A model generated the notes under the pieces. That model was not told the origin of the DNA and ran no database searches. It worked only from the letters and a program-made list of their open reading frames with translations. This document shows, in pieces, positions 33,975-39,550 of a stretch of DNA of 64,000 nt (position 1 is its first letter; each line of letters opens with the position of its first letter). The stretch is from Escherichia coli (GTDB lineage: Bacteria > Pseudomonadota > Gammaproteobacteria > Enterobacterales > Enterobacteriaceae), in NCBI RefSeq assembly GCF_044324875.1, contig NZ_CP172185.1. One strand, 5' to 3'. Made by a program: the position numbers and the translations under genes.

Positions 33975-35162
33975 ATGAACTTATCCCTACGACGCTCTAC
34001 CAGCGCCCTTCTTGCCTCGTCGTTGTTATTAACCATCGGACGCGGCGCTACGCTGCCGTTTATGACCATTTACTTGAGTCGCCAGTACAGCCTGAGTGTC
34101 GATCTAATCGGTTATGCGATGACAATTGCGCTCACTATTGGCGTCGTTTTTAGCCTCGGTTTTGGTATCCTGGCGGATAAGTTCGACAAGAAACGCTATA
34201 TGTTACTGGCAATTACCGCCTTCGCCTGCGGTTTTATTGCCATTCCTTTAGTGAATAACGTGACGCTGGTGGTGCTCTTTTTTGCCCTCATTAACTGCGC
34301 CTATTCCGTTTTTGCTACTGTGTTGAAAGCCTGGTTTGCCGACAATCTTTCGTCCACCAGCAAAACGAAAATCTTCTCAATCAACTACACCATGCTCAAC
34401 ATTGGCTGGACCATCGGTCCGCCGCTCGGCACGCTGTTGGTGATGCAGAGCATCAATCTGCCCTTTTGGCTGGCAGCTATCTGTTCCGCGTTTCCCATGC
34501 TTTTCATTCAAATTTGGGTAAAGCGCAGCGAGAAAATCATCGCCACGGAAACAGCCAGTGCCTGGTCGCCGAAAGTTTTATTACAAGATAAAGCACTGTT
34601 GTGGTTTACCTGCTCTGGCTTTCTGGCTTCTTTTGTTAGCGGCGCATTTGCTTCATGCATTTCACAATATGTGATGGTGATTGCTGATGGGGATTTTGCC
34701 GAAAAGGTGGTCGCGGTTGTTCTTCCAGTGAATGCTGCCATGGTAGTTACGTTGCAATATTCCGTGGGCCGGCGACTTAACCCGGCTAACATCCGCACGC
34801 TGATGACAGCAGGCACCCTCTGTTTCGTCATCGGTCTGGTCGGTTTTATTTTTTCCGGCAACAGCCTGCTATTGTGGGGTATGTCAGCTGCGGTATTTAC
34901 TGTCGGTGAAATCATTTATGCGCCGGGCGAGTATATGTTGATTGACCATATTGCGCCGCCAGGAATGAAAGCCAGCTATTTTTCCGCTCAGTCTTTAGGC
35001 TGGCTTGGTGCGGCGATTAACCCATTAGTGAGTGGCATAGTGCTAACCAACCTGCCGCCTTCCTCGCTGTTTATCATCTTAGCGTTGGTGATCATTGCTG
35101 CGTGGGTGCTGATGTTAAAAGGAATTCGTGCAAGACCGTGGGGGCAGCCCGCGCTTTGTTGA
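33975..35162 (+). CDS. ydeE: MFS transporter (dipeptide exporter family)
   Basis: 395 aa, 12-TM MFS. Confidence 0.9.
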   Translation: MNLSLRRSTSALLASSLLLTIGRGATLPFMTIYLSRQYSLSVDLIGYAMTIALTIGVVFSLGFGILADKFDKKRYMLLAITAFACGFIAIPLVNNVTLVVLFFALINCAYSVFATVLKAWFADNLSSTSKTKIFSINYTMLNIGWTIGPPLGTLLVMQSINLPFWLAAICSAFPMLFIQIWVKRSEKIIATETASAWSPKVLLQDKALLWFTCSGFLASFVSGAFASCISQYVMVIADGDFAEKVVAVVLPVNAAMVVTLQYSVGRRLNPANIRTLMTAGTLCFVIGLVGFIFSGNSLLLWGMSAAVFTVGEIIYAPGEYMLIDHIAPPGMKASYFSAQSLGWLGAAINPLVSGIVLTNLPPSSLFIILALVIIAAWVLMLKGIRARPWGQPALC

Positions 35163-35288
35163 TTTAAGTCGAACACAATAAAAATTTAATTCAGCCTTCG
35201 TTTAGGTTACCTCTGCTAATATCTTTCTCATTGAGATGAAAATTAAGGTAAGCGAGGAAACACACCACACCATAAACGGAGGCAAATA

Positions 35289-35384
35289 ATGCTGGGTAAT
35301 ATGAATGTTTTTATGGCCGTACTGGGAATAATTTTATTTTCTGGTTTTCTGGCCGCGTATTTCAGCCACAAATGGGATGACTAA
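35289..35384 (+). CDS. mgtS: 31-aa small membrane protein MgtS
   Basis: Not in ORF track (under 60 aa). ATG at 35289 encodes MLGNMNVFMAVLGIILFSGFLAAYFSHKWDD, matching the known small protein. Confidence 0.85.
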   Translation: MLGNMNVFMAVLGIILFSGFLAAYFSHKWDD

Positions 35385-35411
35385 TGAACGGAGATAATCC
35401 CTCACCTAACC

Positions 35412-35450
35412 GGCCCCTTGTTACAGTTGTGTACAAGGGGCCTGATTTTT
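35412..35450 (+). terminator. Rho-independent terminator after mgtS
   Basis: Stem GGCCCCTT...AAGGGGCC followed by a T-rich tract. Confidence 0.5.
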
Positions 35451-35451
35451 A

Positions 35452-35560
35452 TGACGGCAAAAAAAAACCGCCAGTAAACCGGCGGTGAATGCTTGCATGG
35501 ATAGATTTGTGTTTTGCTTTTACGCTAACAGGCATTTTCCTGCACTGATAACGGATCGTT
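35452..35560 (-). ncRNA. mgrR: Candidate small RNA (MgrR-like) in the mgtS–dgcZ intergenic region; boundaries approximate
   Basis: On the minus strand a GC hairpin (CCGCC...GGCGG) is followed by nine T's at about 35452..35486, i.e. a strong terminator about 120–150 nt downstream of the dgcZ stop. K-12 has the sRNA MgrR in this intergenic region; its sequence was not recalled, so strand and coordinates are inferred. Confidence 0.3.
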
Positions 35561-35602
35561 GACACAGTAGCATCAGTTTTCTCAATGAATGTTAAACGGA
35601 GC

Positions 35603-36493
35603 TTAAACTCGGTTAATCACATTTTGTTCGTCAATAAACATACAGCGATTTCTTCCGGTTTGCTTACCCTCATACATTGCCCGGTCCGCTCTTCCAATGA
35701 CCACATCCAGAGGTTCTTCAGGAAATGCGCGACTCACACCTGCAGTCACGGTAATGTTGATATGCCCTTCAGAATGTGTGATGGCATGGTTATCGACTAA
35801 CTGGCAAATTCTGATACCTGCACGACATGCTTCTTCATCATTAGCCGCTTTGACAATAATGATAAATTCTTCGCCACCGTAGCGATAAACCGTTTCGTAA
35901 TCGCGCGTCCAACTGGCTAAGTAAGTTGCCAGGGTGCGTAATACTACATCGCCGATTAAATGCCCGTAGGTATCATTAACCAATTTAAATCGGTCAATAT
36001 CCAACAACATTAAATAAAGATTCAGAGGCTCAGCGTTGCGTAACTGATGATCAAAGGATTCATCAAGAACCCGACGACCCGGCAATCCCGTCAAAACATC
36101 CATATTGCTACGGATCGTCAGCAAATAAATTTTGTAATCGGTTAATGCCGCAGTAAAAGAAAGCAACCCTTCCTGAAAGGCGTCGAAATGCGCGTCCTGC
36201 CAGTGATTTTCAACAATAGCCAACATTAATTCCCGACCACAGTTATGCATATGTTGATGGGCAGAATCCATTAGCCGAACGTAAGGTAATTCATCGTTAT
36301 CGAGTGGTCCCAGATGATCAATCCACCGACCAAACTGGCACAGTCCATAAGAATGGTTATCCGTTATTTCTGGCTTACTGGCATCTCTCGCGACCACGCT
36401 GTGAAACATACTCACCAGCCACTGGTAGTGGGCATCGATAGCCTTATTGAGATTTAACAAGATGGCATCAATTTCCGTTGTCTTCTTGATCAT
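35603..36493 (-). CDS. dgcZ: Zinc-sensing diguanylate cyclase
   Basis: Start trimmed to MIKKTTEIDAILLNLNKAIDAHYQWLV giving 296 aa; GGDEF domain with RYGGEEF. Confidence 0.9.
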   Translation of the reverse strand: MIKKTTEIDAILLNLNKAIDAHYQWLVSMFHSVVARDASKPEITDNHSYGLCQFGRWIDHLGPLDNDELPYVRLMDSAHQHMHNCGRELMLAIVENHWQDAHFDAFQEGLLSFTAALTDYKIYLLTIRSNMDVLTGLPGRRVLDESFDHQLRNAEPLNLYLMLLDIDRFKLVNDTYGHLIGDVVLRTLATYLASWTRDYETVYRYGGEEFIIIVKAANDEEACRAGIRICQLVDNHAITHSEGHINITVTAGVSRAFPEEPLDVVIGRADRAMYEGKQTGRNRCMFIDEQNVINRV

Positions 36494-36747
36494 TGCCACT
36501 CCTTTTTCACAGTTCCTTGTGCGCGCTATTCTAACGAGAGAAAAGCAAAATTACGTCAATATTTTCATAGAAATCCGAAGTTATGAGTCATCTCTGAGAT
36601 AACATTGTGATTTGAAACAAAATCAGCAGATAAAAAAGTGTTTAATTCTGTAAATTAAGCCTGCATTATCGCAATTAAAAGGATGACAAATAGCATAAAC
36701 CAATACCCTAATGGCCCAGTAGTTCAGGCCATCAGGCTCATTTATTT

Positions 36748-37140
36748 TTATTTCTGCAAATGAGTGACCCGAACGACGGCCGGCGCGCTTTTCTTATCCA
36801 GACTGCCGCTAATGTTGATCATCTGGTCCGGCTGAACTTCTCGTCCATCAAAGACTGCCGCAGGAATAACAACATTAATTTCACCGCTCTTATCGCGAAA
36901 AACGTAACGGTTCTCTCCTTTGTGAGAAATCAAATTACCGCGTAGTGAAACCGAAGCGCCATCATGCATGGTTTTTGCGAAATCTACGGTCATTTTTTTT
37001 GCATCATCGGTTCCGCGATAGCCATCTTCTATTGCATGAGGCGGCGGTGGCGCTGCATCCTGTTTTAAACCGCCCTGGTCATCTGCCAACGCATAAGGCA
37101 TGACAAGAAAACTTGCTAATACAATGGCCTGAAATTTCAT
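36748..37140 (-). CDS. ydeI: Periplasmic OB-fold (YgiW/BOF family) stress protein
   Basis: 130 aa with signal peptide [19 protein letters not shown]. Confidence 0.9.
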
Positions 37141-37385
37141 ACTGACTCCTTAATTGCGTTTGGTTTGACTTATTAAGTCTGGTTGCTATTTTTATAATTG
37201 ACAAATAAGAATACTGCCAATTGTTATAAGGCATTTAAAATCAGGCAACTAGCTGTCAAATATTAAGAGAATTTAACTCACTAAAGTAAGAAGAAGATTA
37301 AAGAGTCTTAAACATATTTCAGAACAATCAGATTTATAAATTTGAAAATTATTATAACGGAAGGGTATACAAAAAAAGTAATTTT

Positions 37386-37460
37386 GCTGGCGACTGCGAA
37401 ACGGCATTCGCATTAGCGGTGAAGTTTGCCCCCACCCAGCTGCTGCAATTACTGCTCTAA
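37386..37460 (+). pseudogene. ydeJ: Possible 3'-terminal remnant of ydeJ (CinA-like) after an AT-rich replacement
   Basis: No ORF of 60 aa or more between ydeI and dcp. GC-rich ~75 bp ending in TAA (...AGDCETAFALAVKFAPTQLLQLLL*) follows ~240 bp of very AT-rich sequence with an abrupt composition shift near 37385. ydeJ identity is by position only. Confidence 0.3.
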
Positions 37461-37504
37461 CCAGGCTGGCCTGGCGATATCTCCAGGCCAGCCATTGGTG
37501 GTGT

Positions 37505-39550
37505 TTATATGTTCAAGCCACGATGTTGCAGCATCGGCATAATCTGAGGTGCCTTACCGCGCCATTGTCGATACAGGCGTTCCAGATCTTCGCTGTTACC
37601 TCTGGAAAGAATCGCCTCGCGAAAACGCCGCCCATTTTCACGCGTTAATCCGCCCTGCTCAACAAACCACTGGTAACCATCATCGGCCAACATTTGCGTC
37701 CACAGATAAGCGTAATAACCTGCGGCATATCCGCCACCAAAAATATGGGCGAAATAACTGCTGCGATAGCGTGGCGGTATAGCGGGAAGATCCATATTTT
37801 CTGCCACCAGCGCCCGCAATTCGAAATCATCGACATCCTGCATTGCTTCGTTTTCTTCCAGGCAATGCCAGCGCATATCGAGAAGTGCGGCGCTAAGCAG
37901 TTCGCTCATCTCATACCCTTTATTGAACAGGCTGGCATTACGCATTTTCTGTTGCAGTTCGTCAGGCATTGCTGCCCCGCTCTGATAATGCCGGGCGTAG
38001 CGAGCGAATACCTGCGGATGCGTTGCCCAGTGTTCGTTGATTTGCGACGGAAATTCGACAAAATCACGCGGCGTGTTGGTGCCGGAAAGTGTGGCATAAC
38101 GCTGGCGGGCAAAGAGGCCGTGCAACGTATGACCAAATTCATGGAATAAGGTTATGACATCATCCCAGAGTAACAACGCAGGCTCACCGGCAGCGGGTTT
38201 CTGATAATTGCAGACGTTATAAATTACCGGATGCGTTTCATTAAGCGTTGATTGCTCAACAAAATTGCCCATCCATGCACCGCCGCTTTTTGAATCACGG
38301 GCGAAGAAATCACCGTAAAATAACGCCAGCCCCACGCCATTATGATCAAAAATTTCCCATACACGAACGTCAGGATGGTAGACAGGAATATCAAAACGTT
38401 CGACAAACTTAATACCGAAGAGCTGATTCGCGGTCCAGAATACACCTTCATTCAACACCGTGTTTAATTCAAAATATGGCTTGAGCTGCGATTCATCGAG
38501 ATCGAATTTCTCACGTCTTACCTGCTCGGCATAAAATGCCCAGTCCCACGGCTGCGCGCTAAACCCGCCCTGCTGCTTATCGATAACCGCCTGTATGGAG
38601 GCTAATTCATCGCTCGCACGTTGACGCGCCGCTGGAACAATTTCCCGCATAAAGTTGAGTGCTGCTTCTGGCGTTTTTGCCATCTGATCGGCGATTTTCC
38701 ATGCGGCATAATGAGGGAAACCAAGCAGTTTCGCCTGCTGCGCGCGGATCTCCACCAGACGTTGAATGATAGCGCGGGTATCATTGGCATCATTTTTTTC
38801 CGCTCGCGTCCAGCCCGCAGTGAACAGTTTTTCACGCGTCGCGCGATCGCGCAGTTCAGCAAGCGCTGGTTGCTGGGTGGTATTCAGCAACGGAATCAGC
38901 CATTTGTTATCCAGACCTTTCTCGCGAGCCGCCTCTGCCGCCAGCGCAATCTCTTGCTCACTCATTCCTGCCAGCTGCGCGAAATCGTTCACAACCAGAC
39001 CGCCGGATTTATTTGCTGCCAGTAACCGCTGGTTAAACTGGCTGGTCAGGGTCGCAGCTTCTGTATTCAGGACTTTTAATTTTGCTTTATCAGCTTGTGC
39101 AAGTTTGGCTCCGGCAAGGACAAAACGTTGATGAATGACCTCCACCAGGCGGATGGATTCACTATCAAGTCCCAGGGATTCACGGCGTTGCCAGACAGCA
39201 TCTACCCGCGCGAATAATTCACCGTTCAGATAGATATCATTAGCCAGTTCCGCCAGTTCAGCGGAAAACTGTTCATCAAGACGCTGTAATTCATCATTAG
39301 TATGCGCCGCAGTCATCGCAAAAAAGACGCTGGTAACGCGGGTAAGTAATTCTCCGCTTTGTTCCAGTGCCAGAATAGTATTGTTGAAATCAGGTGTTTG
39401 CGGGTTAAGCGCGATGGCAGCAATTTCTGCCCGCTTTTGCTGCATTCCCTCATCGAATGCCGGGCGATAGTGATGATTGGCAATTTGATCAAAATGGGGA
39501 GCCAGATACGGCAGTGTGCTTTGCACAAGGAAAGGATTCATTGTTGTCAT
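37505..39550 (-). CDS. dcp: Dipeptidyl carboxypeptidase II (M3 zinc metallopeptidase)
   Basis: Start trimmed to MTTMNPFLVQ giving 681 aa; HEXXH motif HEFGH. Confidence 0.95.
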   Translation of the reverse strand: MTTMNPFLVQSTLPYLAPHFDQIANHHYRPAFDEGMQQKRAEIAAIALNPQTPDFNNTILALEQSGELLTRVTSVFFAMTAAHTNDELQRLDEQFSAELAELANDIYLNGELFARVDAVWQRRESLGLDSESIRLVEVIHQRFVLAGAKLAQADKAKLKVLNTEAATLTSQFNQRLLAANKSGGLVVNDFAQLAGMSEQEIALAAEAAREKGLDNKWLIPLLNTTQQPALAELRDRATREKLFTAGWTRAEKNDANDTRAIIQRLVEIRAQQAKLLGFPHYAAWKIADQMAKTPEAALNFMREIVPAARQRASDELASIQAVIDKQQGGFSAQPWDWAFYAEQVRREKFDLDESQLKPYFELNTVLNEGVFWTANQLFGIKFVERFDIPVYHPDVRVWEIFDHNGVGLALFYGDFFARDSKSGGAWMGNFVEQSTLNETHPVIYNVCNYQKPAAGEPALLLWDDVITLFHEFGHTLHGLFARQRYATLSGTNTPRDFVEFPSQINEHWATHPQVFARYARHYQSGAAMPDELQQKMRNASLFNKGYEMSELLSAALLDMRWHCLEENEAMQDVDDFELRALVAENMDLPAIPPRYRSSYFAHIFGGGYAAGYYAYLWTQMLADDGYQWFVEQGGLTRENGRRFREAILSRGNSEDLERLYRQWRGKAPQIMPMLQHRGLNI

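Follow-up and report, generated by a model that had tools for sequence, protein, structure and literature searches.

An ancient 475-bp deletion probably underlies the ydeJ remnant between ydeI and dcp in Escherichia coli

The gene ydeJ of Escherichia coli K-12 (b1537; PF02464) is located between ydeI and dcp and encodes a single-domain CinA/PncC paralogue for which NMN deamidase activity was reported to be lacking (PMC3855486). The ydeJ promoter of Salmonella is sensitive to supercoiling, and the DNA of a ydeJ deletion mutant is more negatively supercoiled; the gene has been renamed rdsA (PMC7387798). The divergent spacer that separates ydeI from ydeJ measures 275 bp, and in K-12 the regulator RcdA was reported to bind this spacer and to affect the expression of ydeI (PMC3535384). 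The naming of the protein deserves a remark. The K-12 record describes YdeJ merely as a 'PF02464 family protein', and RefSeq/PGAP and NCBIfam NF002972 refer to the same CinA-fold protein as '2-oxo-tetronate isomerase'. That activity (EC 5.3.1.35, OtnI) has been assigned to b2739, a hydroxypyruvate-isomerase-like protein (PMC12506659; PMC12994016), and the product name given to YdeJ is probably a mislabel.

In the window analysed here (the whole 64-kb stretch of E. coli DNA, numbered from its first base), the gene order is dgcZ-ydeI-[remnant]-dcp-ydfG, which is that of K-12. The ydeI gene (36748-37140, minus strand) is intact in the list of open reading frames and encodes a 130-aa periplasmic BOF/OB-fold stress protein (Pfam PF04076 BOF, E 5e-40). 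The peptidyl-dipeptidase gene dcp (37505-39550, minus strand; 2,046 nt according to the RefSeq annotation of the colinear strain KK05-19) is also intact, with its stop codon at 37505-37507. Since ydeI ends at 37140 and the dcp stop codon starts at 37505, the interval between them is 37141-37504, that is 364 bp. An earlier reading made from the sequence alone (hereafter the sequence-only reading) had noted that no open reading frame of at least 60 aa lies here, and this is confirmed: the longest start-to-stop frame touching the interval is 51 aa long and overlaps ydeI, and the longest one wholly inside it has 46 aa. The abrupt switch from AT-rich to GC-rich DNA that was described at the same time is also real, with 26.5% GC across 37141-37385 (26.7% across 37141-37381; the earlier estimate was about 25%) and 57.9% GC across 37384-37504, compared with a mean of 49.5% for the 64-kb window. 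The coordinates given then were right to within a few bases.

We consider, with a probability of roughly 0.93, that this interval arose when 475 bp were lost from the ydeI-ydeJ-dcp region in a single ancient event. The check proposed by the sequence-only reading, an alignment of 37141-37504 with the K-12 ydeI-ydeJ-dcp region, shows a clean deletion of this length: when the window is aligned with the ydeJ-intact strains YY76-1, K-12 MG1655 and MB06022, there is one gap of 475 columns with homologous sequence on both sides, and the missing segment corresponds to positions 1,624,738-1,625,212 of NC_000913.3 by mapping of the breakpoints in K-12. This segment comprises 35 bp at the ydeJ-proximal end of the spacer and 440 nt of ydeJ itself, whose full length is 519 nt. 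The join, GTA[A]/TTTT (the slash marks the breakpoint), is at 37380-37382, with one ambiguous A that amounts to a microhomology of 1 nt. No filler DNA or extra bases are found at the junction in the alignments with ydeJ-intact strains, nor is there any remnant of an insertion sequence (IS), terminal inverted repeat or target-site duplication, native sequence being joined directly to native sequence. Because the two breakpoints share a single A, the junction sequence suggests an illegitimate, nearly blunt repair event rather than an IS- or repeat-mediated one. An IS-mediated deletion was considered and rejected in view of the 1-nt overlap and the lack of extra bases; at this locus IS1 occurs only in other strains.

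According to this scheme, the deletion would have removed 35 bp of spacer holding the ribosome-binding site and the start of ydeJ together with the first 440 nt of the gene, or 146 2/3 codons. It would have left behind an AT-rich spacer that still serves ydeI, a drifting and non-functional 79-nt 3' fragment of ydeJ, and the native hairpin between the two stop codons. The composition step coincides with the breakpoint at 37380-37382 and is not a chance feature; it is abrupt because AT-rich promoter DNA now abuts DNA of coding composition. The ancestral presence of ydeJ is suggested by the truncated but in-frame remnant and by published statements that Salmonella has ydeJ. Searches of a species-representative genome collection with a 25-mer of the junction and with a 26-mer of the hairpin/dcp-end region (the latter identical in every aligned allele except one) each returned 0 loci and give no outgroup information.

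The deletion also created a chimeric 24-codon frame across the junction, initiated by TTG (37342-37416, plus strand; MKIIITEGYTKKVILLATAKRHSH). It was rejected as a gene, having no obvious Shine-Dalgarno sequence and lying in the fastest-diverging segment of the locus.

The remnant itself (37382-37460, plus strand) occupies the syntenic site between ydeI and dcp, convergent with dcp, and its position and orientation are those of ydeJ in K-12. The sequence-only reading had held that ydeJ is missing here and that the GC-rich tail could be its surviving 3' end, and both statements are borne out. The frame at 37383-37460 translates to FAGDCETAFALAVKFAPTQLLQLLL* and runs in frame through the native ydeJ stop; the segment is 91.3% identical over 80 nt to nt 440-519 of K-12 ydeJ (blastn, E 3e-27). 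With K-12 YdeJ as the query, tblastn matches residues 147-163 (E 2.5e-4), and the remnant also matches positions 148-172 of the 175 positions of NF002972 (E 1e-4), scoring 22 bits against a cut-off of 201 bits. What is retained thus runs from the third base of codon 146 through codon 172 to the TAA stop, or approximately the last 26 codons. Homology to K-12 ydeJ extends over the remnant, its stop codon and the hairpin beyond it, whereas everything from the start codon to codon 146 is missing, as are 35 bp of upstream sequence, and 5 of 25 residues have changed; of the seven nucleotide substitutions in the remnant, five alter the amino acid.

No Pfam domain was found in the remnant, and a complete CinA domain (about 155 positions) with a start codon is absent; none can be made because the deletion took codons 1-146, start codon included, along with the 35 bp upstream. 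The remnant is therefore a pseudogene fragment and not a functional member of the ydeJ/CinA-PncC family (PF02464), and the predicted functional consequence is the loss of YdeJ, a CinA/PncC-fold protein. The fragment is common and already known to RefSeq, which annotates it as an 81-nt partial pseudogene (corresponding to 37380-37460 of the window) flagged 'incomplete; partial in the middle of a contig; missing N-terminus'. Annotated examples are ACZ0NF_RS22400 in the near-identical KK05-19 and L6L58_RS12700 in the more distant KOr019. These are the same feature as ours, that of KOr019 differing by a few substitutions. An intact ydeJ elsewhere in the genome had been named as an observation that would speak against the loss; no second ydeJ-like sequence was found elsewhere within the 64-kb window. 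Across a collection of 5,426 complete E. coli genomes, ydeJ yielded 4,344 matches in 4,332 genomes, with one match each among the listed genomes that have only the remnant.

The DNA to the left of the junction (37141-37381) tells the other half of the story. This block is colinear with the native divergent spacer between ydeI and ydeJ in ydeJ-intact strains; of the 275 bp of that spacer, about 240 are retained according to the alignments with K-12, YY76-1 and MB06022. The retained part would comprise the ydeI promoter and 5' region together with the upstream portion of the promoter region of ydeJ. The sequence-only reading had taken ydeJ to be replaced by some 240 bp of AT-rich DNA, possibly a deletion scar. 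In fact nothing was inserted, the K-12 spacer being AT-rich as well (28% GC), and since the block is colinear with the native spacer it is not a scar; the scar is the junction alone. Binding of H-NS, which had also been suggested, is plausible from AT-richness alone (26.7% GC) and stays putative. The spacer contains no exact match to the RcdA box TTGTnnACA; one RcdA-like site with a single mismatch (TTGTATACC, minus strand) is found at 37372, in the poorly conserved part next to the junction.

Conservation is very uneven along the locus. Identity to K-12 is 98.5% for ydeI, 98.0% for the 3' end of dcp and 96.7% for the spacer over 37141-37260 (about 97-98% with ydeJ-intact strains), but falls to 89.7% over the 70 bp at 37261-37330, to 83.0% over the 53 bp left of the junction (37331-37383) and to 90.9% for the ydeJ remnant. 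Expressed as substitutions, 23 of the 198 aligned bp at 37261-37460 differ from K-12, against 14 of the 789 bp of ydeI and the dcp 3' end (Fisher p 1e-8). The part of the spacer that serves ydeI stays conserved, and the YdeI protein WP_000671737.1 is found in KK05-19 and in ydeJ-intact strains alike. Relaxed constraint on an orphaned promoter/5' region and on a dead gene fragment predicts such an excess of change near the scar. Divergence reaches 17% locally, a somewhat high figure to which an old divergent haplotype could contribute beside drift.

The hairpin that follows the remnant had been reported as a perfect 11-bp stem, and it is indeed present, 2 bp to the left of the earlier estimate. 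It spans 37464-37493, with arms GGCTGGCCTGG at 37464-37474 and CCAGGCCAGCC at 37483-37493 and an 8-nt loop, and it falls within the 44-bp gap between the convergent stop codons of ydeJ and dcp. As RNA it folds at -29.2 kcal/mol on the plus strand and -28.8 kcal/mol on the minus strand (z -4.6 and -5.7), a stability that none of 200 shuffles reaches. K-12 has the hairpin too, its homologous copy folding at -25.9 and -24.9 kcal/mol. The comparison with K-12 thus points to a native inter-stop element, which probably acts as a two-way transcription stop. It resembles the intrinsic (Rho-independent) terminators of convergent genes in being a GC-rich perfect stem, stable on both strands, between two stops; it differs from them in that no canonical U-run follows, the tails 3' of the stem being AUUGGUGGUGUUUAU (plus) and UGGUUAGAG (minus), and termination is to be regarded as putative. 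A consensus terminator scan did not call the hairpin because there is no T-run after the stem.

Two quite different origins or roles for the AT-rich block have to be weighed against its being retained spacer next to a deletion. On composition alone one might take it for foreign DNA, horizontally acquired, silenced by H-NS and inserted in place of ydeJ: its GC content of 26.7% is far from the window mean of 49.5% and it ends in a sharp step. However, it lines up position by position with the spacer that ydeJ-intact strains have (97-98% identity in the ydeI-proximal half), the K-12 spacer is equally AT-rich (28.4% GC), the 1.2-kb region around it is matched in 5,418 of 5,426 E. coli genomes, and there are no extra bases at the junction. 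The alignments thus refute a horizontally acquired insertion, the spacer being colinear in the ydeJ-intact strains aligned, and we see next to no chance that such an origin is correct. The interval might instead harbor an unannotated small RNA, as had been proposed for the AT-rich block, or the orphaned ydeJ promoter might give rise to a short non-coding RNA that crosses the remnant and extends as far as the hairpin. Two sigma-70-like sites do survive on the plus strand upstream of the junction (37165-37192 and 37214-37241), with the strong hairpin some 270-300 nt downstream; the ydeJ promoter is active and supercoiling-sensitive in Salmonella (PMC7387798); and in Shigella flexneri the predicted small RNAs Ssr13 and Ssr37, which adjoin ydeJ, were positive by RT-PCR (PMC4782007), but that evidence is not strand-specific and is not mapped to the sequence of the window. 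The two promoter-like sites of the consensus scan match the expectation from shuffled sequence (2 observed against a shuffle mean of 2.4), and the same scan, whose hits overall occur at the shuffle rate, called no promoter on the minus strand for ydeI. Rfam 15 gives no match at E<=1 in 37141-37504, shuffled sequence folds as well as the AT-rich block does (z -0.18 and -0.12 on the two strands), and within the locus conservation is lowest in the remnant and in the 120 bp next to the junction, the opposite of what is expected of a functional RNA. On the Rfam result and the folding z-scores we rejected a small-RNA locus in the AT-rich block, and we regard a transcript of either kind as very unlikely. 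The preferred reading remains that of a retained native spacer abutting a deletion. The only Rfam match at E<=1 in 34500-38000 is STnc560 (MgrR), an Hfq-binding small RNA (35378-35591, minus strand; 281 bits, E 2e-65), which sits at the mgrR position between mgtS/mgtT and dgcZ, as in K-12.

The distribution of the deletion was assessed in the 5,426 complete genomes mentioned above, a biased sample that is rich in clinical isolates. The 5,418 matches to the 1.2-kb locus query fall into three arrangements. In the first, the match is split in two over a span of about 1,675 bp and ydeJ is annotated; the second is colinear with the window and has the partial pseudogene between ydeI and dcp; and in the third (ST131, ATCC 25922, VTB96929v) 58% of the query is covered. 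A ydeJ of at least 80% length is found in 3,607 of the 5,426 genomes (66%), and a 96-bp query spanning the junction is matched in one piece, at 95.8-100% identity, in 1,645 (30%), with about 170 genomes outside both counts. The third arrangement reflects a second deletion of 504 bp, which removes about 100 N-terminal codons of ydeI (some two-thirds of the gene) and about 200 bp of the spacer. It is carried by the ST131 strain 4433, by ATCC 25922 ('FDA strain Seattle 1946'), by VTB96929v and by many B2 strains. Because this deletion is nested on the ydeJ-deleted allele, both ydeI and ydeJ are pseudogenes in the double-deletion B2 strains; their ydeJ junction and remnant are identical to those of the window, which differs in having ydeI and the spacer intact. 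The single-deletion form seen in the window is estimated at about 512-678 genomes and the double-deletion form at about 967-1,133. These figures are brackets rather than counts, as clean counting is hampered by the joining of nearby pieces in BLAST and by its low-complexity filter, which masks A/T runs; a direct count of 1,123 double deletions obtained with an ST131 junction query was discarded, being contaminated by single-deletion genomes joined from two pieces.

The presence of more than one lesion raises the possibility that the locus is prone to deletions, a hot spot at which ydeJ was lost independently and recurrently across lineages, with the 504-bp deletion of B2 strains and the IS1 insertions of strain 07_3636 and NZ_OZ547571.1 as signs of instability. 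Against this, the junction string AAAAAAAGTAATTTTGCTGG is identical in the window, KK05-19, KOr019, ST131 4433, VTB96929v and ATCC 25922, and these six deletion alleles, which come from different backgrounds and are all of those examined, have derived substitutions in common on either side of the junction; the 96-bp junction query, moreover, is matched in one piece at 95.8-100% identity in as many as 1,645 genomes. Recurrent loss is hence very improbable. An identical junction combined with shared flanking substitutions indicates one ancestral event, so that the 475-bp deletion would have a single origin. Strain KOr019 combines the single deletion and intact ydeI with the B2-type haplotype of remnant and hairpin, and is thus intermediate between the single- and double-deletion forms. 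Decay then probably occurred in two steps, the 475-bp deletion coming first and many strains of phylogroup B2 gaining the 504-bp deletion later.

Several observations were made on individual strains. The IS1 events at the locus are independent ones: in 07_3636, IS1 stands in place of ydeI and the 5' part of dgcZ, with ydeJ intact, and in NZ_OZ547571.1 IS1 lies inside an otherwise window-like 1.2-kb region. The annotation of ATCC 25922 and VTB96929v further lists mgtT as frameshifted. The segment 28000-48000 of the window is 100% identical to four genomes whose sources are unrelated, namely to strain A10 from a wood-wren, to LSC52 and 2021CK-01784 from humans, and to BEC1-S17-ESBL-09; this 20-kb stretch is matched at >=99% by just 192 records of the collection.

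As a sequence feature the interval is minor: a common, annotated remnant beside a normal promoter spacer, fully explained and ordinary. Its value is modest and lies elsewhere. The junction and the nested 504-bp deletion provide clean single-origin markers for a lineage series from intact, to ydeJ deleted, to ydeJ and ydeI deleted. The natural absence of ydeJ concerns about 30% to a third of sequenced E. coli, including pandemic extraintestinal pathogenic (ExPEC) clones. Salmonella RdsA was reported to restrain negative supercoiling, and it is conceivable, if doubtful, that ydeJ-null lineages have a different supercoiling set-point. A related and likewise doubtful reading is that the orphaned, supercoiling-sensitive ydeJ promoter may fire into the 79-nt remnant and yield a non-coding RNA of about 270-300 nt ending at the hairpin. 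Given the link between rdsA and supercoiling in Salmonella, the ydeJ-deleted lineages are natural ydeJ/rdsA nulls and may offer a ready-made comparison; they make up about 30% of the E. coli sequenced, among them the B2 lineages ST131 and ST73, and most of them also lack ydeI.
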